Source: Candidatus Nitrospira inopinata | GTDB lineage: Bacteria > Nitrospirota > Nitrospiria > Nitrospirales > Nitrospiraceae | DNA: 32,000 nt | Assembly: GCF_001458695.1 (NCBI RefSeq) | Contig: NZ_LN885086.1 | Span: forward strand, 660,001-692,000 | Direction: 5' to 3' | Part shown: positions 3,741 to 32,000 of the stretch, piece after piece | Layout: each line of letters opens with the position of its first letter | Position numbering within the stretch: position 1 is the stretch's first letter | Translations under genes and position numbers: made by a program | The notes under the pieces: generated by a model | Seen by the model: the letters and a program-made list of their open reading frames with translations, nothing else | Database searches by the model: none | Told to the model about the DNA's origin: nothing

Positions 3741-6131
3741 CTACCTTGTACGACGCCGTCCCGCCTGCTTCCGTCCCGCGCTCCATCGCCAGTTTCTGAT
3801 CTCCGGCATGTCTTCTCCATACTTGGCGATGTATTCCTTATGTTCGATGCGTTTGTCCCGCAGGGCCTGTTTGACGTAGGCCGCCCGCGACTCGCGCAAC
3901 GGAATTCGATCGATCACGTCGGCGACAAGATGAAATCGGTCCAGATCGTTCAGGACGGTCATGTCGAACGGCGTCGTGGTCGTCCCTTCCTCCTTGTAGC
4001 CTCGCACATGCAGGTTCTTGTGATTGGTCCGTCGATAGGTCAATCGATGAATCAGCCAGGGATATCCATGAAAGGCGAAGATGATCGGTTTGTCGGTCGT
4101 GAACAAGGTATCGAACTCTTTGTCGGACAATCCGTTCGGATGTTCGCCGGGCGGCTGGAGCTTCATCAGATCAACGACATTGATCACCCGCGCTCTCACT
4201 TCCGGCAGATACGTCCGCAGCAACGACACGGCCGCCAACGTTTCCATTGTCGGAATATCCCCGCAACAGGCCATCACCACGTCAGGCTCGCTCTCGTGGT
4301 CGTTGCTCGCCCAGTCCCACATGCCGATACCGGCGGTGCTATGTTTGACCGCGGTGTCCATATCGAGCCACTGGGGCGCAAGCTGCTTTCCGGCCACGAT
4401 GACGTTCACGAGATTTCGGCTGCGCAAACACTTGTCGGTCACATAGAGCAACGTATTGGCATCCGGCGGCAGGTACACCCGGATCACCTCGGCCTTTTTG
4501 TTGACGACATGATCGATGAAGCCGGGGTCTTGATGGCTAAACCCATTGTGATCCTGCCGCCAGACGTGCGAAGACAACAAATAATTGAGCGAGGCGATCG
4601 GGCGCCTCCATGGAATGTGATTACAGACCTTCAGCCACTTGGCATGTTGGTTGAACATCGAATCGACGATATGGATGAACGCCTCATAGCAGGAGAAGAA
4701 CCCGTGCCGGCCCGTGAGCAGATAGCCTTCCAGCCATCCCTGACATTGATGCTCGCTCAACATTTCCATCACCCGGCCGTCTGGCGACAAACTATCGTCG
4801 TAGGGATACCGTTCCGCCATCCACGTGCGTCCCGTGACTTGCAAGACATCCTGCCAGCGGTTGGAGTTGTTTTCGTCCGGGCTGAAGAGCCGAAAGTTCC
4901 GCTGATCCAGATTGAGCTTCATCGTGTCACGCAACAACATGCCCATGATGCGCGTGGCCTCGGCATCGATTGCACCCGGTTCTGTCACCGACACAGCGTA
5001 TTCTCGAAAATCGGGGAGGCGAAGATCTTTGAGCAACAACCCCCCGTTCGCATGCGGATTGGCGCTCATGCGGCGATCACCTTGGGGCGCCAGCTCGGCC
5101 AGTTCCGGTTTCAACCGGCCGGTCTCATCGAATAAGTCCTCCGGCCTGTAACTCTTCATCCACCGTTCGAGAATCTTGACATGCGCGACCTTGTCCATAT
5201 CCCCCATCGGCACCTGATGGGAGCGCCAGTAATCTTCCACCCGCTTCCCGTCGATCTCGGCCGGACAGGTCCAGCCCTTGGGCGTGCGTAGCACGATCAT
5301 GGGCCACACCGGCCGTTGGACAGCGCCGTTGGCCAGGGCGTCCCGCTTGATCTTCTTGATCTCTTCCACCACCACGTCGAGTGTTTCAGCCATCAAGCGG
5401 TGCATCGTTCGAGGGTCGCTGCCTTCGACAAAATAGGGGTGATGGCCGTAGCCCCGCAGCAATTGTTCCAGCTCATCGCGGCTGATCCGAGCCAGGATCG
5501 ACGGATTGGCGATCTTGTAGCCGTTGAGGTGCAGAATGGGCAGCACCACGCCGTCCGTGACCGGGTTCAAAAATTTGTTCGAGTGCCAGCTTGTCGCCAA
5601 CGGACCGGTCTCCGCCTCGCCATCACCCACGACACAGGCGACGATCAGGTCGGGATTGTCGAACGCAGCGCCATAGGCATGAGAAAGGGCGTAGCCCAAT
5701 TCGCCTCCTTCATGGATCGAGCCGGGAATCTCCGGCGCCACGTGACTGGGAATGCCGCCGGGAAACGAAAACTGTTTGAACAGCCGTTTCATGCCCGGCT
5801 CATCCTGCGAGACATTCGGATAGACCTCGCTGTAAGTCCCTTCCAGATAGGCATTGGCCACTAAGGCAGGGCCTCCGTGTCCCGGTCCGGTGATGTAGAT
5901 CATGTTGAGATCATACTGCTTGATGATGCGATTGAGATGGACATAGATAAAATTGAGCCCCGGCGTCGTCCCCCAATGGCCCAACAACCGCGGCTTGATG
6001 TGGGCTCGCGTCAGGGGCTTTCGGAGCAGCGGATTGTCGTAGAGATAGATCTGTCCGACCGACAGATAATTGGCCGCCCGCCAGTAGGCGTCGAGTTTTT
6101 CGAGGAAGTCCGCTGACGGTGATTTCTTCAT
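3741..6131 (-). CDS. xfp: Xylulose-5-phosphate/fructose-6-phosphate phosphoketolase
   Basis: 796 aa. The N-terminus [24 protein letters not shown]...[16 protein letters not shown], together with [16 protein letters not shown] and [10 protein letters not shown] (ThDP-binding), are signature strings of Xfp-type phosphoketolases. A GGAGGGA SD lies about 10 nt upstream of the ATG at 6131. Confidence 0.95.
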
Positions 6132-20206: not shown

Positions 20207-21466
20207 TCACGTCTTCCCCGGCCCGGACTTGTCAAGCTTATCGATGCCCATAGTTCTCAGGATGGCCTTCTCGAAGAACGGTTCGCTCACGCCCCTTTTC
20301 ATTTTCATGAGGAAATACTTTTCCAGCCCGATTTTGGCCAGATGCACCCATTTGCCCTTCTTGGCCCAGGTGACGTTGCGCGGCGCCATTTGCGGCAACG
20401 CGACGAACGCCATGCCGGTGTCGCCCATGTCGGCCAGACAGACGGCGTTCCAGGTCGCCGTTTCTTTCTTATTGTCGTTCTCGATGTCCGCTTTGATATT
20501 GTGCACGGCGGCGGACACCATGGACTCGATCATGTAGCCGGTTTTAGGCGCACCGGTCGGAACCGGCGTCTGCTCCACCGGAGGAATCGCCACGCAGACC
20601 CCGACGGCGTAGATATTCCGATACTTGGGATTCGCCTGATAGGCGTCGATGTTGACGAAGCCCTTCGGGTTGCAGAGCCCCGGCGTGCTCGCCACGGCGT
20701 CGACGCCGGCGAACGGCGGAATCATCATGGAATAACGGAACGGCACTTCCTGTCCGTCTTCCAGAATCATCGTTCCGGGCCGCACTTCTTTAATCGAGGC
20801 GTTGGGAATCGTCTTGATCGCGTGCTCGGCGCATTCATCTTCCATCAGCCGGCGAGACCTGCCCACCCCCGCCAACCCCATGTGGCCGATATAGGGTTCC
20901 GGAGTCACAAAATACATGGGAACTTTTTTTCGCAGTTTTTTCTTCCGGAGATCGGCATCCAGGATGAAGGCCATCTCATAGGCGGGGCCGAAACAAGACG
21001 CCCCTTGCGCGGCGCCGATCACGACTGGACCGGGATCCTTGAGGAAACTTTGGTACGCCCCCCAGGCCTGTTCGGCGTGGTCCACGGTACACACCGATTG
21101 GGTAAACCCGCTGGGGCCGAGACCCGGCACCGCACCGAAGTTCAACTTAGGGCCTGTGGCGATGATGAGATAATCGTAGGGCACCTCGCCTTTCGACGTA
21201 ATGACTTGATTCTGCTCCGGTTCGATCCGCTCGGCTGCCGCATTGACGAATTCAATGCCTTTCTTCTCCAATACCGGCCCCAATGAAAAGCTGATGTCTT
21301 TTCTTGTCCGCCAACCGACCGCCACCCAGGGGTTGGAGGGAACAAAATGAAAGAAGTCCACATTCGAAATCACGGTGACTTTATGTTTCTTGTCCAACAA
21401 CGCCCGTGCTTCATAAGCGGCCGGAAGCCCTCCGATCGATGCGCCGATGATCACGACTCGTGCCAT
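20207..21466 (-). CDS. sqr: Sulfide:quinone oxidoreductase (type I-like flavoprotein)
   Basis: 419 aa. The FAD motif VVIIGASIGG is present, with FVPSNPWVAVGW, YDYLIIATGPKL, GAPKTGYMIESMVSAAVHNIKADIE and GVSEPFFEK. From memory these closely match the crystallised Acidithiobacillus ferrooxidans/Aquifex SQRs. The three catalytic-site cysteines are present (Cys126 in SVCTVDH, Cys158 in GASCFGPAYE, Cys343 in NAVCLADMGD). A GAGGAGG SD is present. Confidence 0.92.
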   Translation of the reverse strand: MARVVIIGASIGGLPAAYEARALLDKKHKVTVISNVDFFHFVPSNPWVAVGWRTRKDISFSLGPVLEKKGIEFVNAAAERIEPEQNQVITSKGEVPYDYLIIATGPKLNFGAVPGLGPSGFTQSVCTVDHAEQAWGAYQSFLKDPGPVVIGAAQGASCFGPAYEMAFILDADLRKKKLRKKVPMYFVTPEPYIGHMGLAGVGRSRRLMEDECAEHAIKTIPNASIKEVRPGTMILEDGQEVPFRYSMMIPPFAGVDAVASTPGLCNPKGFVNIDAYQANPKYRNIYAVGVCVAIPPVEQTPVPTGAPKTGYMIESMVSAAVHNIKADIENDNKKETATWNAVCLADMGDTGMAFVALPQMAPRNVTWAKKGKWVHLAKIGLEKYFLMKMKRGVSEPFFEKAILRTMGIDKLDKSGPGKT

Positions 21467-21660: not shown

Positions 21661-22128
21661 CTATCGCGATTCGCCCAGACGGTACATCTCATGACAGGCC
21701 GTACAGCGGGCGGTCATATCCGAGAGGCGCCGTATGATCTCCTGCGTGGTCGCTCCTTCAGCGATCGCATCCGCCAGCGCATCCATGTCTTTATGGATCG
21801 ACATGCCCAGTTGTTTGAACGGCAGCGGCAGTTTGGCCATGATCGTCGGTTCAACGTCGGCCGCCATGCCCATGCCCGCTTCCCTTGCAATCATGGCCAA
21901 GACGCGCCGGTCAATCTCGACATCTCCGAGGCCGCGGAGAATGCCATCGACCGTTTTCAACAAGAGTCTCATCTCAGCCAAGATCTGATCCCGCTCCGCG
22001 GGTGCCAGGAGAATCTCCGTCCGGCCGTCGCTTCCCGATCTCGTCCATCCCCGCACAAAGAGCCAGGTGCCGACGGCCAACGTCATCAGCCACAGCAGAA
22101 TCGCAATGAGACAGATAGTTCGTTTCAT
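21661..22128 (-). CDS. Membrane-anchored helical c-type cytochrome with a single C-terminal CXXCH (class II / cytochrome c'-like)
   Basis: The track ORF (21661..22410) has an implausible Gly/Pro/Arg-rich N-terminal extension that would overlap the next gene. The internal ATG at 22128 has an AAGAGGTG SD and gives a 155-aa protein. That protein starts with the anchor/signal MKRTICLIAILLWLMTLAVGTWLF, continues as an Ala/Leu/Glu/Arg-rich helical body, and ends ...MTARCTACHEMYRLGESR (CXXCH at 21691..21705, 12 residues from the C-terminus). Confidence 0.6.
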   Translation of the reverse strand: MKRTICLIAILLWLMTLAVGTWLFVRGWTRSGSDGRTEILLAPAERDQILAEMRLLLKTVDGILRGLGDVEIDRRVLAMIAREAGMGMAADVEPTIMAKLPLPFKQLGMSIHKDMDALADAIAEGATTQEIIRRLSDMTARCTACHEMYRLGESR

Positions 22129-22307
22129 GGCACCTCTTGACTCGACCGAGACCAAATGCTGGGCGCGCGGCGGATCATGGATGGCCCCCTTTGCAGAAGG
22201 AACCCTACCAATGTCACCCCGTGATCTCAAGAGGCGACCGAGACCTGGTCTTTTGAAGCGAGAGCCGCGGTCGGGGTACATCCCCGGAGATGCACCGAGC
22301 GGGAAGG

Positions 22308-22784
22308 CTAGGAGCGTGCCAGGATGACCGCCACCACGATGACAACCAGCGACAGCAGCAGGGAAAACCGGGGCACCCAACGGGCCGTGCTCACCGCCAG
22401 CTTTTCCCACGCTGTTCGTGAAGAAGCGGGAATCGACGAGGCGCGACCGACTTGGGGCCCGAGCACCACATCATGAAGCACGGTGACGACAAGGAGCAAC
22501 AGCACGAGCCAGATTTTGACGGTCGCGACCGACGACCATGATGCGGGGTTCGTCAACATCATGCCTCGCCTCGCCAAAAGAACGGGACCGGTCGTCAGCA
22601 ACAGGGCGATGGCCGTCCATACGACGACGCGAAACCTGAGCGCCGCGGAGCGAAACAGCGCCATGAATTCCGGCGCTGCCTTCCGGTTTTTGACAAGAGG
22701 CGCGAGCACCAGACTTAAAAAAAGCATGCCGCCGATCCAGGCCACGGCGGCCAAGAGATGAAGCGCGACGAGCGCGTGATACAT
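22308..22784 (-). CDS. Four-TM membrane protein, CopD/HemJ-like N-terminal motif (family unresolved)
   Basis: 158 aa with 4 predicted TM helices. The N-terminus MYHALVALHLLAAVAWIGGMLFLSLVL resembles the His-containing first helix of CopD-domain/HemJ-like proteins. I saw no clear SD. Confidence 0.5.
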   Translation of the reverse strand: MYHALVALHLLAAVAWIGGMLFLSLVLAPLVKNRKAAPEFMALFRSAALRFRVVVWTAIALLLTTGPVLLARRGMMLTNPASWSSVATVKIWLVLLLLVVTVLHDVVLGPQVGRASSIPASSRTAWEKLAVSTARWVPRFSLLLSLVVIVVAVILARS

Positions 22785-22816
22785 GGCGCTATCATAGTCG
22801 ATTTCATCTCCAAATT

Positions 22817-23785
22817 GTGATTATTAGCACTCGATGCGTCATCGACTGCGTGGTCGACGCCGGCCTCCTTGACTCCGGATCCCGCGTCCCGGTACAGACT
22901 GGTATGGGCTGCGCATATTCTTCTTGGGTCAATGTCATGCTTATCGGCGCAGTTGTGGGATTGCCGTGGTGGAGCCAGGGAGCAGGGGCGGTTTCCCTCG
23001 GTCTCAAACAGGCCGAGCACATCGCACACGTTGCCGTGAGCTCTCCGCAAGAGGCCGTACCGGAGGGGTTTTTTCTAATGGGCACCCCCCGTCAGGGGAA
23101 ATTGTACGGTCTTGAGGTCCAATACGACGACACGGAGCAGCCCCAGCGACGTATTTGGCTCAGCGCCTTTCTGATCGACCGCTACGAGGTCAGTCTGGGA
23201 GAATTTCTGGATTGGCTCCAACAGGAGCGCCGCCCGCTTCCTGAAGAATTGCGCAAACTCATCGAACACATGACGACCGTGCATGCCATGCAGCCCGAGA
23301 CCGTGGCCCGTTGGCCCGCGCTGTACGTCACGTGGCGCGAAGCTTCAGAGTTTTGTCGCGCGCGAGGGAAACGTCTCCCCACGGAGGCCGAGTGGGAGAA
23401 GGCGGCCCGTGGGGAATCCGGCAATCTGTTTCCTTGGGGAAGCCAGCCTCCCTCTCCAGATCTCGCGAAGTTCGGCCAGTACCATGTCCATGAGATACCG
23501 ATCGTGGGAGCGGTGGACGGCGGCGAGGAGGGCCAAAGCCCCTATGGCCTGCACCACATGGCGGGAAACGCGGCTGAATGGGTCGCCGATTGGTTCGGAA
23601 TTGATTACTACGCCACGATGCCGACTTTGAATCCACCAGGCCCCAAGACCGGCCGCTACAAAGTGGTCCGGGGTGGATCGTGGAAGAGCTCGCCGGAGTT
23701 ACTGAGGACCGCCACACGAAGCGGCGCCTTGCCGGATCAACGAGCCGCGACCATCGGGTTTCGGTGCGCCAGATCGCTTGAGTAG
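22817..23785 (+). CDS. FGE-sulfatase (SUMF1/PvdO/NirV-like) fold protein lacking the FGE catalytic cysteine pair
   Basis: Domain strings: FFLMGTP, IWLSAFLIDRYEVSLGEF, YVTWREASEFCRARGKRLPTEAEWEKAARG, LHHMAGNAAEWVADW, VVRGGSWKSS and TIGFRCA. The start is uncertain (GTG 22817, ATG 22904 or ATG 22937, the last giving MLIGAVVGLPWWSQGAGA). After GGSW the sequence is KSSPELLRTATRS, with no Cys. Confidence 0.8.
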   Translation: MIISTRCVIDCVVDAGLLDSGSRVPVQTGMGCAYSSWVNVMLIGAVVGLPWWSQGAGAVSLGLKQAEHIAHVAVSSPQEAVPEGFFLMGTPRQGKLYGLEVQYDDTEQPQRRIWLSAFLIDRYEVSLGEFLDWLQQERRPLPEELRKLIEHMTTVHAMQPETVARWPALYVTWREASEFCRARGKRLPTEAEWEKAARGESGNLFPWGSQPPSPDLAKFGQYHVHEIPIVGAVDGGEEGQSPYGLHHMAGNAAEWVADWFGIDYYATMPTLNPPGPKTGRYKVVRGGSWKSSPELLRTATRSGALPDQRAATIGFRCARSLE

Positions 23786-23892
23786 AGGAGCCGTTCTCGA
23801 TCAGCCGAGGTGAGTGCGCGGTTGAGCGAAGCGCGCGGGGAACGAAACGACACGTCTTGATTGTTTGGATGAAGGAAATAAAGAGGACCCCC

Positions 23893-24501
23893 ATGAGATG
23901 GCTCTCGCTAGTAGGAATTCCGTTGGGGATCATGCTGTCGGCGCTGGGGGCTGTCGCTCCATCGGCGTTTTGCCTTGATGCTCCGGCCGGCTGGAAGCTG
24001 TATACAAACGCCCGATTCGGCTTCTCCGTTCGCTATCCCGACGGCTGGCGTCTGGGCAACCCCATGCCGGACGGGGCCGGCATCGTTCTTTACCCGCCTA
24101 TCGAACACAGCTTGGTGGCGTTATCGGGGCATTTGAATCTGATGGAAGGCAAGAGTCAGGATGGACGGCAGACACTTGATGAATTCGCCGCCGCCCATCG
24201 TCGCATCATCACGGACCTGTACAAAAAACGATCGATCACGGTGACGTGGGGAAAAGATCGCGACCTAGAACTGGCTGGGCTGCCGGCCAAGGAGTTGACG
24301 TTCGACTACGTGGATGAAAAGCGGGTGCCGATCATCGAACACCACTTCTTCACGTTAGGTCGCAATGAAGGTCGGGGAATCCGCATCAAAGTGCCTCGTT
24401 CTGAAGAAGCGAGCGTCATGTCGACGGTAAGGATCATGTTGGAGAATTATCAACCCGGACGCGACCAAGACGCAATCAGTCCATTGGTTCCCGCTCCTTG
24501 A
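23893..24501 (+). CDS. Secreted hypothetical protein (possible PsbP/DcrB-like alpha-beta sandwich; weak call)
   Basis: The ATG at 23893 has an AAGAGGA SD 6 nt upstream; the track start TTG at 23857 is less likely. The signal is MRWLSLVGIPLGIMLSALGAVAPSAFC. The mature N-terminus APAGWKLYTNARFGFSVRYPDGWRL matches the G-W...F-x-F-x-YP-x-x-W opening that I associate with PsbP/Mog1/DcrB-like folds. I recognised no catalytic motif. Confidence 0.55.
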   Translation: MRWLSLVGIPLGIMLSALGAVAPSAFCLDAPAGWKLYTNARFGFSVRYPDGWRLGNPMPDGAGIVLYPPIEHSLVALSGHLNLMEGKSQDGRQTLDEFAAAHRRIITDLYKKRSITVTWGKDRDLELAGLPAKELTFDYVDEKRVPIIEHHFFTLGRNEGRGIRIKVPRSEEASVMSTVRIMLENYQPGRDQDAISPLVPAP

Positions 24502-24591
24502 GCATGATGTTTCACTGTGGCTTTCTCTTTTAACTGCTTCAACTCGTGCCTTTTGAGACTTGGCCCCTCACAACCTGACACGAGCGTGTCT

Positions 24592-25119
24592 TTAGTACGG
24601 CCTCAGGTGGCGTCCTTTGATCTCCAGTGGCGCAGACGTCAGCTCCCGGTACAGACGATGGAACGATTCCGTCGTCAGCATTGGGTCCTGCAGCTTGGCC
24701 AGTTCCGAGGCGTCGATCGGATACTCAACGGTATCGTCGAAATTGGAAGAAGCAATGGTGATGAATCGGGGCGGGAAGAGTCGTTCCGGCAAAAGGATCT
24801 CGATGCCGCCGTTGTACTTAATGGCGAGACGGATGGCTTCTCTCGCCTTGTCCGCCGGAACATCGCGACCCAATCCGATGTTTTTAGGCGGGCGCCCCAT
24901 TTTAGCATATTGGAAATGAACGTTGGTCAGTCCAGCCTGGACAAATTCCGCTTTGATCTCGCTCTCTCGACTTTGGTGCTCTTTGGCGAGCACGGCTTCA
25001 ACGCGACTCACCGGCGGAACCTGCGTATCTTCACCGAAGACCGCGACGTGCGTCGGCCAGCCCGCCATCATGGCGAGGATCATGACTCCGGCTCGGAACG
25101 GATTACGAACGCGCATCAT
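24592..25119 (-). CDS. Secreted hypothetical protein immediately downstream of the giant multicopper oxidase
   Basis: The track ORF 24592..25284 would overlap the MCO stop codon. The internal ATG-ATG at 25119/25116 has a GAAGAGGA SD about 13 nt upstream and gives a 175-aa protein with the signal MMRVRNPFRAGVMILAMMAGWPTHVAVFG. I recognised no family. Confidence 0.5.
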   Translation of the reverse strand: MMRVRNPFRAGVMILAMMAGWPTHVAVFGEDTQVPPVSRVEAVLAKEHQSRESEIKAEFVQAGLTNVHFQYAKMGRPPKNIGLGRDVPADKAREAIRLAIKYNGGIEILLPERLFPPRFITIASSNFDDTVEYPIDASELAKLQDPMLTTESFHRLYRELTSAPLEIKGRHLRPY

Positions 25120-25174
25120 CTTGTGTTTTGAATCCTCTTCAACTTGAAATATGACGGGCGGCACCAGAAGCAAA

Positions 25175-25196
25175 CCGGGGGGCATAAGCCCCCCGG
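25175..25196 (-). terminator. Candidate rho-independent terminator downstream of the multicopper oxidase gene
   Basis: Perfect 9-bp GC stem CCGGGGGGC / GCCCCCCGG with a 4-nt loop (ATAA). On the minus strand it is followed by TTTGCTTCT (25166-25174). Confidence 0.45.
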
Positions 25197-25229
25197 CGTC
25201 ACACTCAGAATATCCGGCACACCGAGACG

Positions 25230-25267
25230 CGCGCGGCGTATCGGTGTTAAGCCCGATACGCCGCGCG
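25230..25267 (-). other. Very stable 15-bp stem-loop 7 nt after the multicopper oxidase stop codon (no U-tract)
   Basis: CGCGCGGCGTATCGG (25230-25244), loop TGTTAAGC, CCGATACGCCGCGCG (25253-25267); the complementarity is perfect. No T-run follows on either strand, so it looks more like a 3' mRNA-stabilising or processing structure than a terminator. Confidence 0.45.
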
Positions 25268-25273
25268 GCTGAT

Positions 25274-28200
25274 CTACTCTTCACTCATCGATGTCGGAGT
25301 AGCCTTTGCTTCCCCACTCGGCTGTTCCACCCGTTTGGTCGGTGGAACTTGCGGGTTCAAGGGCAGGATTCTCCGATCATCGACCGGCAAAACCTTGAAC
25401 AGACCCCACTGCCCTGCGTTGGCATAGGCCGGCCTCTGATTCTTCCAGATGTAATCGCCGACGATCTTGTTCGGACCACCGGCTCCTCCGGTCAGATACG
25501 CGTTGATGATCTCCGACCCGCCGAATTCCATCGTGCTGACCTGGTCGGCCCCCTTCATGTACGGCTCGTGCGGCCACTCGTGACCGTCCACCGTAAAGAG
25601 CTGGACCTGTTCGCTGAACGCACCCAGCACGTGGATGATCACCGGGTCTCCCACGTGAGCCTGCAACAAGGGCGTTGATGGAATCTCGCCCGCCTTCACG
25701 CAACTGAAGACTTCCGACACGTCACAGCCTTTCTCAACTCTCCAGGCTGCCGGCTCAGACCGATAGTTCACGGCCGTAATTCCCGCCACTTGCTGAATGT
25801 ACGGCATGAAGCTGACCCCCACGATGTTGTCCTCGTCTTGGAACATGAGCGAGAAGTCACGATAATTCTTTCGCTTCTCGTTCCCAGGGATCGTTCGATC
25901 GACAAGCACGTCGGCTCGCCAACTGCTCTTCATAGAGATATCTTCGCCGGTCACGGGGTCTCGATACTGAGAGCCTCTCGGTCCGACGATGATGGAGCCG
26001 AACAATCCGTTTCGAGGGTTCTCCACCACGTTGCCCCAATCCTGAATCAACGCGGCGACTTCCCCATACTCCGGATGAGCGTAGTACGTGTACGTTTTCT
26101 TTTCTCCCGGACCGATCGTCTGATCGCCGGGATTGTTGCCGACATTCGCCCCGAATGAGTCCTTCGGATCGAAGGCCATCATATCGACGTGGAAGCCGGC
26201 TCGCTCTTTCGCCATCTCGTTCTTGAGGTGGATTTTGACGCAATCTCCGACGTTGACGTGGAGCGTCAACGGACTCGGCTTCAACTCGCCGGCCTTGACC
26301 TTTCCACGATCGCCTTCGAGCACGTACATTTTGCCTTGTTCGTTCCCAAAGACCATCTTTCTCTCGAGATCGACTTCCATTACACCCGGCGCCCCTTCGT
26401 GATAACGGATCTGCTGATCGACCGCCGACACGTTAAACGACTTGACGGGGGCGTCGGCAGGACACACCGAGGAAGCAGATTTTTGAATCTCCTCGCGTCC
26501 CGGCAATGGTTTCAGGTCTTTCTGCAGCTCATCATACACACGGATGATTCCCCAGCTTCCCTCCGAGAAGTGGGAGGCTCTTCCGCTGTAGTACAGATAA
26601 TCGCCGGCCATTTTTTGTGGTCCTCCCGCGGCCGGAATGGCCGGATCATACCGCTCGCCGATGACCAGATGGATGGTGCTCCGAGGCATCGCCGTGGCCG
26701 CGTACCGCTCCAGCGGGAACCAGTGCCCCGTGACGTGCCACGTGTGTACCTCATTGGCCGAACCGACCAATGCTCTCACGAGAATCGGATCTCCCAGATA
26801 TGCCCGCAGCAACGGCGTGGCCGGATCACCGTGAATCCCCGAGACGAACAATTTCGACGGGTCCGGATCATTGGCCAGTCGCACGCTCAACGGCTCGACG
26901 CGCATGCTGTAGCCGCTGCCAGTCGTCGCCTCTCCACCGTTCAAGAACCACATGGGCGACTTGTTGATTCTTGGCGGGAATTGATGAGACGGCGGACCGT
27001 CCACGGTCACCGCCCCGACCTTGGCTTGCGGATTATCCGTTGTGATCAGCTCCGCCGTTCTGGCATTGCTGTCCATGATATGCATCATGACTTCTCGGAA
27101 GCTGCCGCGAATGTGCGCGGAGACGGGCTCCAACGTGTGAATGTCCGCGATGGGACCGCTCCGAATTTCTTTGCCCGTGACCGGGTCATGATACGTCGAG
27201 CGCGGCGGCTCCGTAATCAGGGCCGAGAAGAGCCCATGACCCCACGTATCGGTCCCGAACACGTGATCGTGCCAGTACACCGTTCCGAGATCCGCGTCGA
27301 TGTACCACCGCTCCCGAATGAACTCGACGCTCACAATGTCGTTTTTCTTATGCCCGTGCTTCAAAGGACGGTCAAACGTCACGGTCTTCCCATTGATGCT
27401 TTTGATTCTCGCAACTTCGAAATACTTGGGATCATCCATCCCAACGCCGAGTTCGATATTGACATGGAACTTCGACGGGTCCGCCACCGTAATGCTCGAT
27501 GCACCGGCCTTGACGTCCGCCGTCAGCACGGTATTGGCCGGCAGCGGCATACCCTCGTTCGGCGCAGGATCTTTCAACATCGTGAAGGCACGGAGCGACA
27601 TGTCATAAGAGAACCCGATCGTCGGCCCGTCCGACGCGCTGGTGTCGAACTGGAAGAAATGCGGATGGAGATTGATTTTATTCGCCCACCCCGTTCGCGC
27701 ATCGTCCGGAATTTCGTTCTTGAAAATGACGTCAACGCAGTCATACACGTTGGCCCGGATGACCAACGGCACCTGTTTCTCCGGTGTCTTCCTGACCTCT
27801 TCCTCCTCCTCGTGCAGCACATAAATCATGCCGATCGGATCCACGAGGGCCGGCGTTTTGGCCGTCGCTTTCTTCAAGGTAATCGGCAGCGTAATCGAAT
27901 GGATCGTGAAATACTTTCTCGGAGCATTCTCCGGACAGAGACTCCACGGCCCTTGCTCTCCGGGTCTGGCCGGTTCCGTACTCTTGGTTCCGTCTTCCCG
28001 CACATGGAACGGCTCCAGCCACGGAGCTCCTCCGTGATTCGGAGCAAAGGGCGGACGCTTCCCCAGGTGCGGACGAAGCCATGGGAACGCCAGTTTTCCC
28101 GTCTGCGGGTCAAACAGAATGGGGGGGCGCTTCAAAGGAGCCGGCGAGACGTAGTTGGCCCACTGATGCGGCGTCTCCGGCTCGTTCAGCGCCAGATTCC

Positions 28201-30007
28201 CTTCCCACTTCCAATTGACGACCGTGGCGTCATTGGCCTGCGCCTGCTTCACCTGGTCCTCGGTCTTCCCCGGCAGGCCCTGAGGCGGAAGCATGTACTC
28301 AACCCAATCCTTGATGGACACCTTCACCGGATTGGCTTTCCAATCCGTCTTGTCCTTAGTGATTTCGTACTTCTTGCCGCCGTACCAATCGACCATCGTC
28401 CCGACGAGTTTGTCAGACGTGACGGCCGGCTTGATCTTCCCCTTGCGATCCGGCAACTCAACCAACGGCTTCATGACGTCGGTTTGAAAACCGGGGGCTT
28501 GCAACGTGTTGTACACGCGCCAGAACCCCCACATGCCTGTTACATAGTGCTGGGGGATATGGCAGTGGAACACGAACTCTCCGGCGAGCGCCTGCAATCC
28601 TCCAGAACCACCCTCGATGACTTCGTCGTAGATTTCAGATGGCCCGATCGACTGGACGTCCAAACGATCCGACGTATCGTTGATGAGCGGGAACTTGACT
28701 GGTCCATTCTTGGACAGAGTCGGATCGAGCCTGCTGGTCTCGGGCTGTCTGGCCCAGCGAATCGACCCTCCATGCAGGTGATGCGAGTGCACGATTTCCG
28801 ATCCGCCGACCATGCGAAACTTGGCCGGATCCCCCAGATAAGAGCGAGGAATCGTGGTGGCGGGATCGCCGAACGTGTAAGAGCCGTACCCTTGCGACTC
28901 ATCCGCAAAACCGATCAAGTGAGCTTGCAACTCCAATCGTTCTCCATGCGGCTCGCTCCGATAGTTGAGCAGCCGGGCGGCCGGCCGATAGGTGTCGGTA
29001 TGAGCGTCCCGCTGCGGAAGCATGTCGCCCTTGCGGTTCAACAGCCGGAACGTCTCATCCCCCGCCTCATGGTAGAAAATGACGAACTCGCGAAAATCGG
29101 ATCCGCCCTCCACATCGATCATGGCTTCCCAGCCGCTCTTCATCTCTTCCCCGGTAAAGGGACTCAGATAACGGGAACCTCTCGGTTCGACTACGAGCGA
29201 TCCAAGCAAACCCAGTGAATATTGATCCCTGGTGGCATGGCTATGAAAAGCACGACCACCCTCCTGAAGATCGACCGGGATATACCATTCAAATTCCCCG
29301 ACCTTGCCCGGAGCGACGAGCGCGTCCGGGTTGTTGGCCGTCGCCGGCTTGCCGGTCGCAGCCACCAACATCTGCGACCCATTGATGATCATGTTCGTCG
29401 GCTCGCCGTCGATCGCGTTGCGCAGGGTAATCCGAAGACAATCACCCTGATTGGCCCGAATCACCAGCGGCTGGATCAAATCGCCCTGCAGGCCGGTCGA
29501 CACCGCCCCTCCGGCGAACGTCGGATCCTCGCTCTCGCGGGCCGCTCTATTTTTCTCTTCCTCCTCGCGAACGCCCGGAACATTTTCCGTCAGCGCATAC
29601 ATGTACCCGGGGTAAAAGTCTCCGAACCGATTCACGGTGATCTCGACGTTGATGGCCGTGATATCGTACGCCCGGACTGGAGCATGGGCGGGACAACGCA
29701 TCCCCTGGGTCACCTTCACCTTATCCTGATCCTCCGCCACCAGCAAAACTCCCTGCTGCATGGCGTGGGCGCTGGCCCCTCTGAATGGGCCCTTGGTCTG
29801 CACTTCCCGCTCGACCTGTTCGATCGCCTTCGACATTTTGTCTTGCAGCGTCGGGCCGGCCTGCCAATGCACGGGCTGCATCGGATTGGCCTTTGAATCA
29901 TGCGTATCGTGGGACGTGACGGCACCGACTGGAGGCGCCCCAGCCAATGTCAGGAAGATTGCACAGCCAAGGACTCCCGACCAAATCCTTTTGATTGAAG
30001 CAGTCAT
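25274..30007 (-). CDS. Giant secreted six-cupredoxin-domain multicopper oxidase (MnxG/MofA/ceruloplasmin-like architecture)
   Basis: 1577 aa, with a GAGGAGG SD 9 nt upstream of the ATG at 30007. The signal is MTASIKRIWSGVLGCAIFLTLAGAPPVGA. MCO ligand motifs: VHSHHLHGG (28769-28792), FHCHIPQHYVTGMWG (28532-28567), LHPHFFQFD (27659-27667) and YWHDH (27263-27277). The protein shows a three-fold internal repeat of a two-domain unit; see findings. Confidence 0.88.
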   Translation of the reverse strand: MTASIKRIWSGVLGCAIFLTLAGAPPVGAVTSHDTHDSKANPMQPVHWQAGPTLQDKMSKAIEQVEREVQTKGPFRGASAHAMQQGVLLVAEDQDKVKVTQGMRCPAHAPVRAYDITAINVEITVNRFGDFYPGYMYALTENVPGVREEEEKNRAARESEDPTFAGGAVSTGLQGDLIQPLVIRANQGDCLRITLRNAIDGEPTNMIINGSQMLVAATGKPATANNPDALVAPGKVGEFEWYIPVDLQEGGRAFHSHATRDQYSLGLLGSLVVEPRGSRYLSPFTGEEMKSGWEAMIDVEGGSDFREFVIFYHEAGDETFRLLNRKGDMLPQRDAHTDTYRPAARLLNYRSEPHGERLELQAHLIGFADESQGYGSYTFGDPATTIPRSYLGDPAKFRMVGGSEIVHSHHLHGGSIRWARQPETSRLDPTLSKNGPVKFPLINDTSDRLDVQSIGPSEIYDEVIEGGSGGLQALAGEFVFHCHIPQHYVTGMWGFWRVYNTLQAPGFQTDVMKPLVELPDRKGKIKPAVTSDKLVGTMVDWYGGKKYEITKDKTDWKANPVKVSIKDWVEYMLPPQGLPGKTEDQVKQAQANDATVVNWKWEGNLALNEPETPHQWANYVSPAPLKRPPILFDPQTGKLAFPWLRPHLGKRPPFAPNHGGAPWLEPFHVREDGTKSTEPARPGEQGPWSLCPENAPRKYFTIHSITLPITLKKATAKTPALVDPIGMIYVLHEEEEEVRKTPEKQVPLVIRANVYDCVDVIFKNEIPDDARTGWANKINLHPHFFQFDTSASDGPTIGFSYDMSLRAFTMLKDPAPNEGMPLPANTVLTADVKAGASSITVADPSKFHVNIELGVGMDDPKYFEVARIKSINGKTVTFDRPLKHGHKKNDIVSVEFIRERWYIDADLGTVYWHDHVFGTDTWGHGLFSALITEPPRSTYHDPVTGKEIRSGPIADIHTLEPVSAHIRGSFREVMMHIMDSNARTAELITTDNPQAKVGAVTVDGPPSHQFPPRINKSPMWFLNGGEATTGSGYSMRVEPLSVRLANDPDPSKLFVSGIHGDPATPLLRAYLGDPILVRALVGSANEVHTWHVTGHWFPLERYAATAMPRSTIHLVIGERYDPAIPAAGGPQKMAGDYLYYSGRASHFSEGSWGIIRVYDELQKDLKPLPGREEIQKSASSVCPADAPVKSFNVSAVDQQIRYHEGAPGVMEVDLERKMVFGNEQGKMYVLEGDRGKVKAGELKPSPLTLHVNVGDCVKIHLKNEMAKERAGFHVDMMAFDPKDSFGANVGNNPGDQTIGPGEKKTYTYYAHPEYGEVAALIQDWGNVVENPRNGLFGSIIVGPRGSQYRDPVTGEDISMKSSWRADVLVDRTIPGNEKRKNYRDFSLMFQDEDNIVGVSFMPYIQQVAGITAVNYRSEPAAWRVEKGCDVSEVFSCVKAGEIPSTPLLQAHVGDPVIIHVLGAFSEQVQLFTVDGHEWPHEPYMKGADQVSTMEFGGSEIINAYLTGGAGGPNKIVGDYIWKNQRPAYANAGQWGLFKVLPVDDRRILPLNPQVPPTKRVEQPSGEAKATPTSMSEE

Positions 30008-30044
30008 AACGTTTGGCCTCCTCGTTCAGACACAGATTTTTTAT

Positions 30045-30086
30045 GAGACAAAGACAACAAGGCAAAGAACAGAGAAGAGAAAGAAC
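30045..30086 (-). promoter_or_regulatory. Pyrimidine-rich (CU) tract in the leader just upstream of the MCO ribosome-binding site
   Basis: The plus strand reads GAGACAAAGACAACAAGGCAAAGAACAGAGAAGAGAAAGAAC, about 86% purine. The mRNA-sense strand is therefore GUUCUUUCUCUUCUCUGUUCUUUGCCUUGUUGUCUUUGUCUC, 38-79 nt upstream of the ATG. A weak sigma70-like pair overlaps it: TTGCCT (30060-30065), 16 nt spacer, TAAAAA (30038-30043). The function is not established. Confidence 0.3.
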
Positions 30087-30125
30087 TTGTTCGCGAAAGA
30101 ATGTGCTGGACCACGGCCATCCAGG

Positions 30126-30149
30126 TGCTGTTTATCGTGTTGTTTATCG
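30126..30149. repeat. Two tandem 12-mers in the MCO upstream region (possible regulator site)
   Basis: TGCTGTTTATCG (30126-30137) and TGTTGTTTATCG (30138-30149), 11/12 identical. On the gene-sense strand this reads CGATAAACAACA CGATAAACAGCA, 119-142 nt upstream of the ATG. Confidence 0.5.
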
Positions 30150-30599
30150 CAGTCGACGGGAATCTCTTTCGGCGCGGAACTGACACCGCTCTGCTTTGAT
30201 CTCCAGCCGAATGTTTATAACGATTCGAGCGGGATTTTTCAAGAGACCTTGCTTCCTCCTGCACCTTACCCCACAAACTCCGAGATGCGCCGCCGACTGA
30301 CCATATCTGCAACCATCTTACTACCTGTCGGGCGAAGAGGGAACCCTCCCTCCCGTAAAAAACGAGAGCCGGCCCCGCCGAGAAACATTGCTCGTCAGGT
30401 AAAGGAAACGCGAGGCTCCTCTCCGAGATGGCAACCGACCCAAAAAGGACGCCTCGGAGATGAGCGGGGTTTCCCATTCAGAGAAGAGGGGCAAGAAAAT
30501 GCGCCGCCACGGGGTCTCGTTAAATTCAACGTCGGCGTGTAACGGAGGCTTATCCCTTCCTCCTTACGGCCGCCTATCATACCCTTCATCTCGCTTTTC

Positions 30600-31037
30600 T
30601 TATGTTCCGTCGTCTTTCATGGCGGCGAGATGCTTCATCGCTTCTCGTGCCGCGGCGCGAGCCTTGATCGCAGGGTTCAGGCTGGCTCCCGGGTCCACCT
30701 TATCACCCATTTCTTCGACCCGTTTACAATGTTTGATGGCTTCCTCCAAATGCGGCGCGGCCTCCCTGCCTTGACTATTGCCGGCAGGCAACAGTTTGAG
30801 GATGGCCTGAGCTTGCCTGGACACTTCGGCGCAATGATGCAGAATAGCCCTCCCGTCACCCATTCCGCCGTGCATCACCATTTCCTCGGCGTCTCTTACC
30901 ATCGCCTGGCCTTGTTCTTGAATCTGCTTGATGGAGGCCGCGTGAACGGGCGCAGTCCCCATGACCAGCCAACCCAACAGCATGAATACAAAGAACTTTG
31001 GGGAGACCTTCCTTTTCATCATCGCCTGCTTGCTCAC
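30600..31037 (-). CDS. Small periplasmic helical His/Met/Cys-rich metal-binding protein (SmbP- or DUF305-like; family unresolved)
   Basis: 145 aa. The signal is (MSKQA)MMKRKVSPKFFVFMLLGWLVMGTAPVHA. The mature part is about 112 aa and helical, with MVMHGGMGDG and two related H-C motifs, ILHHCAEVSRQA and IKHCKRVEEMG, plus HLEEAIKH and AREAMKHLAAM. The GTG at 31037 overlaps the upstream stop codon (GTGA). ATG-ATG at 31022/31019 is an alternative start. Confidence 0.5.
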   Translation of the reverse strand: MSKQAMMKRKVSPKFFVFMLLGWLVMGTAPVHAASIKQIQEQGQAMVRDAEEMVMHGGMGDGRAILHHCAEVSRQAQAILKLLPAGNSQGREAAPHLEEAIKHCKRVEEMGDKVDPGASLNPAIKARAAAREAMKHLAAMKDDGT

Positions 31038-31804
31038 CTCGTCTCAAACACAAATTCGATCGCGGCCGTCCCCTTCGGTCCGACCGTCACGTCTTGTTCC
31101 CGAGCGCCCAGCGCCGGATGCCAGGCCTTGATACGGTAGGTGCCGGCCGGCAAATCGTCAATTATGAACGAGCCGGTCTCGCCGGTCACCGCATAATACG
31201 GATTGTCGATCGCATAGCCCCAGTTCTGCATATAGGGATGCATACCGCACTGCATGGTGAAGACCTTTCGGCCCTTGACAAGATTTACGACGTCCGTCGT
31301 GCCGGTCGCCTTCAGCGACGGCCTATGCAGAACAATGTCCACGCCCGATTGATCGTAGGCGTACCCCTGAATGTCGTGCGACACGGGATCTCGATTTGTG
31401 ACGGTCAACTGCCGTTTATCGCTGACGACCGTGACAAACGGTAAAAACTGGCAGACGACGGCCTCCACTTTGGCGTCCGTAAAGGTAAACGGCTTGCCGC
31501 TCTGGACTCCTTCTATCACGACCACAACGTCCTTGAGTCCCCCGCCTTGCCCGACCTGGACCTCCGTCATGAACCGCCGCCCGTTTCCATCCGACAACGC
31601 GCCGCAAAACACCTGGTCAGGATACCGGCGCAGCTCGAATTCCTTGGGCGGCGGAATCGCGCCTTGAAATGTGACGGTTCCTCGCACAGTGGCGCCGTCG
31701 GTCACAGTTCGCGATTCATAGGCCCAACTGTATTCATCTTGCGAGAGCCCTGCCGTGAACACCCAGGCAATCAGGCCGACTCCCATCATGGTGGATCGTT
31801 TCAC
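31034..31804 (-). CDS. Secreted type-1 cupredoxin flanked by beta-sandwich (carboxypeptidase-regulatory-like) segments
   Basis: 256 aa. The GTG at 31804 has a GGAGGAGGAA SD 6 nt upstream and overlaps the upstream stop codon (GTGA). The signal is MKRSTMMGVGLIAWVFTAG. Blue-copper ligand pattern: His143 (NRDPVSHDIQG) and Cys186-x2-His189-x2-Met192 (FTMQCGMHPYMQ), which has amicyanin-like loop spacing. The N-terminal GATVRGTVTF and C-terminal TGETGSFIIDDLPAGTYRIKAWHPALG are typical of CarboxypepD_reg-like beta-sandwiches. Confidence 0.65.
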   Translation of the reverse strand: MKRSTMMGVGLIAWVFTAGLSQDEYSWAYESRTVTDGATVRGTVTFQGAIPPPKEFELRRYPDQVFCGALSDGNGRRFMTEVQVGQGGGLKDVVVVIEGVQSGKPFTFTDAKVEAVVCQFLPFVTVVSDKRQLTVTNRDPVSHDIQGYAYDQSGVDIVLHRPSLKATGTTDVVNLVKGRKVFTMQCGMHPYMQNWGYAIDNPYYAVTGETGSFIIDDLPAGTYRIKAWHPALGAREQDVTVGPKGTAAIEFVFETR

Positions 31805-32000
31805 TGTTGTTCCTCCTCCGAATGTTGGCCGCCAGAAGACGGCGCTTGCATGGACTCCCGCGGAACCGCCGGGTCGAGTCGCTGGGGAAGCTCAAACAGG
31901 TAGGGCGACTGTTCGGTAAAGACGACTCTGCGGAACTCTTCCGACCACTGCCCCTGCTTGCTCACCGTCTTCAGGGGGAACCGTTGCGCCTTCGTCACCC
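31801..32000 (-). CDS. 3' end of an unidentified gene, translationally coupled to the cupredoxin gene (5' part outside the window)
   Basis: The frame is open to the right window edge, ...TKAQRFPLKTVSKQGQWSEEFRRVVFTEQSPYLFELPQRLDPAVPRESMQAPSSGGQHSEEEQQ*. The TGA at 31801-31803 overlaps the next gene's GTG. I recognised no family in the 66 visible residues. Confidence 0.4.
   Translation of the reverse strand, partial: VTKAQRFPLKTVSKQGQWSEEFRRVVFTEQSPYLFELPQRLDPAVPRESMQAPSSGGQHSEEEQQ

Follow-up and report, generated by a model that had tools for sequence, protein, structure and literature searches.

In the bacterium Candidatus Nitrospira inopinata, a 32,000-nucleotide stretch of the chromosome (contig NZ_LN885086.1, positions 660,001 to 692,000; hereafter the window) carries, from position 21661 to its end, a group of genes centred on one for a giant multicopper oxidase (MCO). 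We propose that this group belongs to a conserved Nitrospirota locus in which two tandem MCOs of the MnxG family are encoded along with sets of partner proteins, and that the encoded system would act outside the cytoplasm as an O2-reducing metal oxidase, with Mn(II) as its most likely substrate. This overall reading is held with moderate confidence. Judged by sequence, the locus is an MnxG-type metal-oxidase gene cluster with partners that have not been described before; we found no description of this partner set in the literature, and the papers found name oxidase genes only. A preliminary description of the window had counted ten consecutive genes and read them as a single module made of an MCO and nine partners. 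ORFs were found where it had placed them, but they number nine, namely I, H, G, MCO1, E, D, C, B and A. The module itself stands in part: H, E, G and I, together with the recurrent C, D and B, belong to the picture, whereas membership of the cytochrome A is not supported and the notion of a single unit does not hold.

The oxidase gene, MCO1 (25274..30007, minus strand), encodes a secreted protein of 1577 amino acids whose Cu-oxidase domains, already recognized in the preliminary description, are confirmed by Pfam (Cu-oxidase_3 and Cu-oxidase_2). Its N-terminus has a signal-like segment and no twin-arginine motif. In a phmmer comparison with all chains of the Protein Data Bank (PDB), the sole strong match is Bacillus MnxG (9bxa_A; E=3e-94, 320 bits), which aligns with residues 112-528, 895-960 and 1031-1355 of MCO1, and chains of the CueO type and laccases match at no better than E>1e-4 and over one domain. 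The former view that the system has no sequence likeness to MnxEFG is thus wrong for the oxidase. The copper motifs follow the order L3 (HxxHxH at 407-412, with H407, H410 and H412), L4 (HCHxxxHxxxxM at 481-492, with H481-C482-H483, H487 and M492), L1 (HxH at 781-783, with H781 and H783) and L2 (WHDH at 912-915, with H913 and H915). They are invariant in 10 sequences that are 54-94% identical, and between them they supply a type-1 site together with all eight histidines of a trinuclear cluster. The NCBIfam model for MnxG is also the top match of MCO1 in that collection. More than 1000 homologues of MCO1 were found, and all taxa named among the matches and loci listed are Nitrospirota (Nitrospira and Ca. 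Manganitrophaceae).

Two further features of the oxidase gene can be recorded here. The domain-1 motif at residues 205-210 (approximately 29378-29395) reads IING in MCO1 and in both Nitrospira clades, HIHG in four of six aligned homologues with 54-61% identity (Manganitrophaceae-type sequences included) and HFQ in Bacillus MnxG; this may be an extra copper site that is lost or vestigial. An ORF of 1009 codons runs antisense to the MCO gene (26189-29218, plus strand); its translation is Arg-rich and of low complexity, and high G+C content, as opposed to a real gene, probably accounts for it.

Homologues of the window proteins were mapped by tblastn and iterated hidden Markov models onto 80 Nitrospirota loci from approximately 70 species, of which 77 came from species-representative genomes and three had Pfam-annotated genes. 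Partners in distant lineages, B of Manganitrophus being an example, escaped searches with tblastn alone. Directly downstream of 69 of the 79 MCO copies that have at least 1 kb of following DNA lies I (20), H (38) or E (11). Family H occurs at 62 of the 80 loci, E at 45, G at 34, I at 33, C at 32, D at 24, B at 10 and A at six. This recurrence of the neighbourhood exceeds chance. The module idea had been staked on conservation of the flanking genes with the MCO, and H, E, G and I do recur across these loci, repeatedly adjoining MCO homologues at 53-99% identity.

The window shows only part of the arrangement found in its three closest relatives (L001, L045 and L032+L040), whose MCO proteins are 98-99% identical to MCO1. 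In these relatives, a paralogous giant oxidase gene, MCO2, heads the locus (L045:2627-7390, L001:2522-7372 and L032:3379-8202), and its product is approximately 72% identical to MCO1. The order continues with I, H, G, a spacer, MCO1, E, the oppositely oriented D and C, then B, A, an SQR-like gene and an RND pump. Because the window is syntenic with these relatives and ends inside gene I, a second giant MCO should lie just beyond window coordinate 32000, with an expected length of approximately 1590 amino acids and an end some 60-130 bp before the start of I, as in L045 and L001. By the same synteny, I-H-G is the tail of the MCO2 operon, a placement that replaces the earlier assignment of these genes as an upstream set of MCO1. 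All three are on the minus strand: the C-terminal 65-66 codons of I (31801..32000), where the window cuts the gene, followed by H (31034..31804; 256 amino acids, secreted) and G (30600..31037; 145 amino acids, secreted). They are chained through overlapping start and stop codons; the GTGA overlaps reported at 31801-31804 and 31034-31037 are both present, and in the latter the GTG start of G overlaps the TGA stop of H.

Elsewhere, the same families are arranged differently. Genomes that carry only the MCO2 type have the order MCO2-I-H-(G), then D and C in the opposite orientation, then B...A. Most Nitrospira carry a unit MCO1-H'-E-G', which is inserted after C instead of between G and D. Other Nitrospirota, including Manganitrophaceae, have MCOs that are 53-61% identical and are followed by one or two H genes, with E on the opposite strand. 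Rearranged neighbours include B-MCO-H in Ca. Manganitrophus SA1, MCO-H-C-I on a single strand in L059, and MCO-H-FGE-FGE in L080, where a gene for a DUF4149 protein follows 6 kb on.

These rearrangements bear on a sceptical alternative, namely that there is no functional module past the MCO and one or two genes, the other neighbours having been kept by shared gene order. Most of the loci come from one genus-level group in which synteny alone can persist, A and B are found at few of them, and the region is divided into several transcription units with a terminator-like hairpin among them. However, the same families occur in differing orders and strands, as when MCO1 is inserted after C or between G and D, and they recur in other taxonomic families beside MCOs with merely 53-56% identity. 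In addition, H and MCO paralogues were duplicated together. We regard this alternative as very improbable.

The oxidase and H are closely linked. H accompanies 21 of 22 MCO2-type copies, and across 58 pairs the identity of the MCO correlates with that of the adjacent H (Spearman rho 0.88). Paralogous H proteins within one genome are 41-49% identical, whereas at other loci each has a counterpart with 56-97% identity, the range being 70-97% for six of the seven loci compared. This pattern is that of two genes that were duplicated together and co-diverge. A persistent gene set in variable order, combined with co-duplication of MCO and H, argues for more than inherited gene order.

On present sequence evidence, H represents a kind of protein not described before, in which a transthyretin-like sandwich is interrupted by a domain that bears a blue-copper-like site. 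Its only Pfam match is a C-terminal one to CarboxypepD_reg, which covers residues 203-252 alone; since the first strands of the sandwich lie at approximately 33-47, the region from 48 to 203 that holds the metal site is read as an insertion of approximately 155 residues. In 23 homologues with 31-77% identity, six residues never vary (C67, C118, H143, C186, H189 and M192), and the pattern of a His followed by Cys-x2-His-x2-Met resembles the blue copper sites of the amicyanin type. The type-1 (T1) copper reading given to this protein in the preliminary description is thus backed by H143, C186, H189 and M192. A profile of the insert has a single match in the PDB, the T1 copper protein 5fc9 (E=0.068), in which the His and the Cys-x2-His are in register. 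An AlphaFold model computed from a 26-sequence alignment has a mean predicted local distance difference test (pLDDT) score of 48, with the insert below 50, and no claim about the fold is built on it. H-type units are rare, with 458 among 1.84 billion representative proteins, and in longer proteins elsewhere they are joined with a pair of cytochrome c domains, with a beta-propeller plus a cytochrome c of the planctomycete type (PSCyt1), or with a di-haem peroxidase. C67, C118, H143, C186 and H189 stay invariant in the cytochrome-fused relatives; the Met after Cys-x2-His is invariant in the MCO-linked set and nearly always present overall. The fusions and the conserved ligands argue for a redox role.

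A more distant H paralogue, 30-33% identical and retaining Cys-x2-His-x2-Met, is encoded slightly further downstream of some MCO operons (L014:10137-10931, L030:14041-14835, L056:14846-15640, L070:9017-10033 and L074:10057-10992).

A redox role for H raises the question of where electrons would go. One answer is energy conservation, in which electrons taken from metal by the MCO would pass via H into the respiratory chain, and O2 would be used partly or not at all at the enzyme's own cluster. No other partner is as constant as H, which diverges in step with the MCO, its relatives are fused to c-type cytochromes, and in Ca. Manganitrophus SA1 the B-MCO-H genes stand beside genes for Rieske, cytochrome b-c and cytochrome c proteins. 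A lithotrophic role of these MCOs would, moreover, require electrons to reach a periplasmic carrier (PMC9040806). Set against these points, all eight histidines of the trinuclear cluster are invariant, so that ordinary O2 reduction is expected; the proximity of bc-type genes is confined to one locus; and most hosts are nitrite oxidisers without known metal lithotrophy. We rate the explanation as improbable, and we give a similarly low chance to its specific form, in which MCO and H would constitute a metal:cupredoxin oxidoreductase through which Mn(II), or some other metal, supplies the Nitrospirota respiratory chain with electrons. If that form were true, H would be the missing periplasmic carrier for lithotrophy by the MCOs of Ca. 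Manganitrophaceae, and ordinary Nitrospira would have a hidden metal-oxidising energy metabolism.

The other small partners are G, E and I. G passes the Pfam SMBP model (PF16785) by a slight margin (29.9 bits, cut-off 29), matches SmbP in the PDB (3u8v) at E=0.16, and has the motif HGGMGD..AI.HHC and a second Cys conserved among 37 homologues, in agreement with its initial description as a small His/Met/Cys metal-binding protein. The product of E (24592..25119, minus strand; 175 amino acids) is likely to be an alpha/beta protein that is secreted. Among the partners downstream of MCO1-type genes, E is the most constant, being found there for 35 of 35 copies, and it has no Pfam match even at relaxed thresholds and no meaningful PDB profile match; a Foldseek search of the PDB with its AlphaFold model (pLDDT 63) returned nothing below E=0.3. 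Gene I, as seen in relatives, encodes a secreted protein of approximately 200 amino acids and is the first gene after the paralogous MCO2; the full-length orthologues have signal-peptide-like N-termini. It too has no match to Pfam (relaxed thresholds included) or to PDB profiles. At four loci, a cluster of two or three FGE-fold genes and an I-like gene lies 5-8 kb upstream of MCO1 (L003:1331-4914, L022:1507-5083, L048:1277-4824 and L010:1998-4536), which indicates that the I and FGE-fold families also travel together apart from the oxidase.

Gene C (22817..23785, plus strand; true start probably at approximately 22904-22934) encodes a secreted or anchored protein with an FGE-sulfatase domain (PF03781, 161.5 bits). 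The FGE-fold assignment previously made for it is upheld for the domain and not for the active site. True FGEs have a catalytic copper-binding cysteine pair that we take to be located after the GGSW motif; this pair is absent from C and from all 14 aligned homologues, and the window protein reads GGSWKSSPELLR. PvdO is among its NCBIfam matches, and by sequence C resembles non-catalytic periplasmic members of the fold such as PvdO. In L080 and L059, C is on the same strand as MCO-H and directly follows it. Gene D (23857..24501, plus strand; likely true start the ATG at 23893) encodes a secreted protein of approximately 200 amino acids. Its initial label of 'PsbP-like' was not confirmed, as there is no Pfam match (relaxed thresholds included) and no PDB profile match. 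In nearly all of the 24 loci that carry D, it lies immediately beside C on the same strand, and we predict from this layout that D is co-transcribed after C.

Gene B (22308..22784, minus strand) encodes a membrane protein of 158 amino acids with approximately four hydrophobic spans. It reaches the cut-off of Pfam DUF4149 (24.6 bits) and falls below those for CopD in Pfam (24.5 versus 32.1 bits) and NCBIfam (27.7 versus 195 bits, over the C-terminal half of the model only). This agrees with its earlier designation as a CopD-like membrane protein. Conserved residues include H9 and H103-D104. In Ca. Manganitrophus SA1, the gene immediately upstream of the MCO encodes a homologue with 38% identity.

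The characters of G, B and H invite a second functional explanation, in which the genes form a copper or iron homeostasis module. The MCO would then resemble CueO or ceruloplasmin and act in the periplasm as a cuprous oxidase or a ferroxidase, and copper traffic in a nitrifier with a high demand for this metal would be handled by the SMBP, the CopD-like protein and the cupredoxin-like H. All identifiable partners are indeed copper-themed (the SMBP-family G, the CopD/DUF4149-like B and H with its T1-type site), and the family is present in Nitrospira of many habitats beyond Mn-rich ones. Six-domain ceruloplasmin is a ferroxidase, and SmbP of N. europaea binds Cu(II). Yet the nearest characterised relative of the oxidase, by far, is the Mn oxidase MnxG, and two giant paralogues with dedicated partner sets seem excessive for detoxification. 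Moreover, no gene of the CopA/CusCBA or CueR type is attached to the cluster, and the neighbouring RND pump is generic. We consider copper or iron homeostasis unlikely, although it is the main rival.

Under the metal-oxidase reading that we prefer, each oxidase gene would have behind it a few genes for secreted partners of its own (I, H and G for MCO2, and E for MCO1). The oxidase and H would form the core pair, with the C-D unit and B as looser, recurrent satellites. The apo-oxidase would leave the cytoplasm before it receives its copper. It would then withdraw electrons one at a time from a reduced metal ion, at its type-1 copper or close to it, and its trinuclear cluster would reduce O2 to water. 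H would serve either as a tightly associated subunit or as a one-electron relay of the oxidase. G might buffer or donate copper, B might move copper through the inner membrane, and C and D might assist maturation. All of these partner roles, whether in copper delivery, maturation or electron transfer, are predictions from sequence character. Mn(II) is favoured because of the homology to MnxG and the ecology of the hosts; it is our best guess of the substrate, and a tentative one that is somewhat more apt to be wrong than right, with Fe(II) and Cu(I) as the other candidates.

Several observations weigh against this reading. The functions of all proteins of the region are inferred from their sequences, and homology is a poor predictor of MCO substrate (bioRxiv 10.1101/2024.12.25.630300). 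MCO1 scores 140.9 bits against the 3100-bit cut-off of the NCBIfam MnxG equivalog model (NF041487, P. putida type), and by this measure it is an MnxG homologue outside the P. putida MnxG orthologous group. The family is spread over Nitrospira of many habitats, a distribution that does not point specifically to manganese. None of H, G, E, D and I is detectably related to PDB chains named MnxE or MnxF, where the deposition of such chains was unchecked. The cupredoxin fold of the insert of H is putative: no cupredoxin Pfam family matches it, the single PDB match described above has E=0.068, and the AlphaFold model scores low. B is restricted to one in eight of the loci. Finally, the terminator-like hairpin between MCO1 and E and the placement of C-D on the other strand mean that co-expression is not implied.

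Comparison with known manganese oxidase systems indicates both what is shared and what is new. MnxG has been reported as the sole characterised MCO that needs accessory proteins, MnxE and MnxF being those that accompany the Bacillus enzyme (PMC5622069). The Mnx complex of Bacillus sp. PL-12 (mnxDEFG; MnxG with an MnxE3F3 hexamer) resembles the present system in the homology of the oxidase, in the order of its copper motifs and in the small proteins with apparent copper sites that are encoded beside it. However, the window MCO is approximately 350 residues longer, and H, G, E and I, which are unlike any PDB chain named MnxE or MnxF, are encoded downstream of an MCO and not upstream. The Bacillus complex is a spore coat component, whereas the Nitrospira system, known from genes alone, would be periplasmic or secreted in a Gram-negative nitrifier.

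In Pseudomonas putida GB-1, the operon that contains mnxG encodes an ABC transporter, a beta-propeller protein of the lactonase family, MnxG, an SCO-family protein and a SurA-N protein (PMC8218464). It likewise combines a giant MnxG-type MCO with periplasmic helpers, including a copper chaperone-type protein, but SCO, SurA and ABC partners are lacking here and H, SMBP, E, I, FGE-like and DUF4149 proteins are found instead. MofA of Leptothrix is accompanied by a PPIase (MofB) and a cytochrome c (MofC) (PMC8218464). Compared by description only, mofABC of Leptothrix discophora is similar in joining a large, Mn-implicated MCO to accessory genes. It differs in that a general Pfam scan found no PPIase match among the nine region proteins and in that cytochrome A is not a conserved partner.

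The individual partners can be compared in the same manner. G and SmbP of Nitrosomonas europaea (PF16785, 3u8v) are both small secreted proteins of nitrifiers, helical and rich in His; the match of G to that family is marginal, and G differs in its conserved Cys and Met residues and in its location within an MCO operon. H shares with small blue copper proteins (amicyanin and plastocyanin; 5fc9) the His...Cys-x2-His-x2-Met pattern, with N-x-D-x-x-x-H aligned in register, but its domain is inserted in a transthyretin-like sandwich, has an extra conserved Cys pair and matches no cupredoxin family in Pfam. The pairing of an FGE-sulfatase-fold protein (C; compare NirV and PvdO) with a neighbouring copper enzyme of the cupredoxin family also has a parallel, as NirV-type proteins with this fold are encoded beside copper nitrite reductase genes; the function of NirV is unsettled.

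Oxidases of this kind have been noted before in the same hosts. The core genes of Manganitrophaceae include 'two novel MCOs' (PMC9040806), and mnxG-like genes were present in all Nitrospira genomes recovered from Mn-removing sand filters (bioRxiv 10.1101/2024.12.25.630300). A 2025 paper on the comparative genomics of Nitrospirales leaves these MCOs unmentioned. Nitrospira dominate Mn-removing drinking-water sand filters, with an abundance above what nitrite oxidation explains. To our knowledge, no manganese chemolithoautotrophs are known other than their relatives, the Manganitrophaceae. Giant MnxG-like oxidases are encoded in both groups. Bacillus MnxG could be produced only together with its accessory proteins, and the same may apply to the Nitrospira oxidase. 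Defining a conserved partner set provides a small, concrete collection of genes for co-expression, and H becomes a specific candidate for a relay that would carry electrons from metal oxidation to respiration.

The preliminary description had also treated the cluster as one unit in which every protein has a signal peptide or a membrane anchor. Instead, the genes are divided between two strands and make up four or more transcription units. The N-termini of A, C, D, MCO1, G and H begin with charged residues, and a hydrophobic stretch comes next, and B has its membrane spans, so that the generalization holds for these proteins; the N-terminal hydrophobic segment of E is weaker and lies under the hydropathy threshold used.

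Two non-coding spacers lie among the minus-strand genes. The gap between the ORFs of G and MCO1 has exactly the 592 bp (30008..30599) first reported and is presumed to be the promoter and 5' region of the MCO1 unit. It has no match in Rfam, and our searches found no sigma-70-like site and no sigma-54 consensus match with up to two mismatches. Compared with the three closest relatives, the spacer has a nucleotide identity of 75-82% and the flanking genes one of 87-95%, and an ORF of 157 codons within the spacer is not conserved. A riboswitch or a small gene was considered for this spacer and rejected, given the absence of an Rfam match, the unconserved ORF and a rate of evolution faster than that of the genes. 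The spacer between MCO1 and E (25120..25273) contains two strong RNA hairpins (fold energy -75.4 kcal/mol, z = -5.9) and is conserved in L001, L045 and L040. A terminator scan identified the second hairpin (25174-25197), which has 10 pairs, nine of them G-C, followed by a T-rich tail, and which looks like an intrinsic terminator. Because such strong hairpins lie between the two genes, E may be only partly co-transcribed with the MCO.

The last of the nine genes, A (21661..22128, minus strand), encodes an anchored protein of approximately 155 amino acids. Consistent with its description as a membrane-anchored CXXCH cytochrome are an N-terminal anchor, a CTACH motif near the C-terminus and a sub-threshold match to the cytochrome c' family of Pfam (Cytochrom_C_2, PF01322; 25.0 bits, cut-off 26.5). 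Its proposed role as a partner of the oxidase is not supported, given that A is found at so few loci and at three of them (L001, L031 and L045) adjoins a gene for an SQR-like flavoprotein. The corresponding gene in the window (20207-21466, minus strand) is type III SQR-like (NCBIfam, 103 bits, below cut-off). A is probably outside the MCO module and most likely belongs with this neighbour, which suggests that the two genes form a separate small redox unit.

Between positions 3741 and 19945, the window has genes for two enzymes of carbohydrate metabolism (phosphoketolase and a glucan phosphorylase) and for transport proteins, namely an ABC-2 exporter, a TolC-like protein and an RND pump of generic type that comes with two adaptors. 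Neither a regulator nor any specifically metal-related gene was seen in this interval. The RND, TolC and ABC-2 genes were considered as a possible link to copper efflux, and this was rejected because they are of a generic multidrug type.

Other genes near MCO clusters in the surveyed loci may also be recorded. A gene resembling HalD/2OG-Fe(II) oxygenases is found in two lineages that are distant from each other, upstream of MCO2 in the Nitrospira locus L045 (735-1487) and downstream of MCO-H-FGE-FGE in L080 (18189-18935). In loci of the Manganitrophaceae type, a sigma-54 enhancer-binding protein is encoded just upstream of the MCO genes (L078:4723-9071 and L079:1610-2884), and in Ca. Manganitrophus SA1 the genes for a Rieske protein, a cytochrome b/c fusion and a cytochrome c lie ahead of the gene for this enhancer-binding protein. 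A PQQ_2/BamB-like beta-propeller gene is located between two tandem MCOs in L079 (8373-9530); the operon of P. putida mnxG likewise includes a beta-propeller gene, of the lactonase family, and P0499 combines an H-type unit with a lactonase propeller in one protein.

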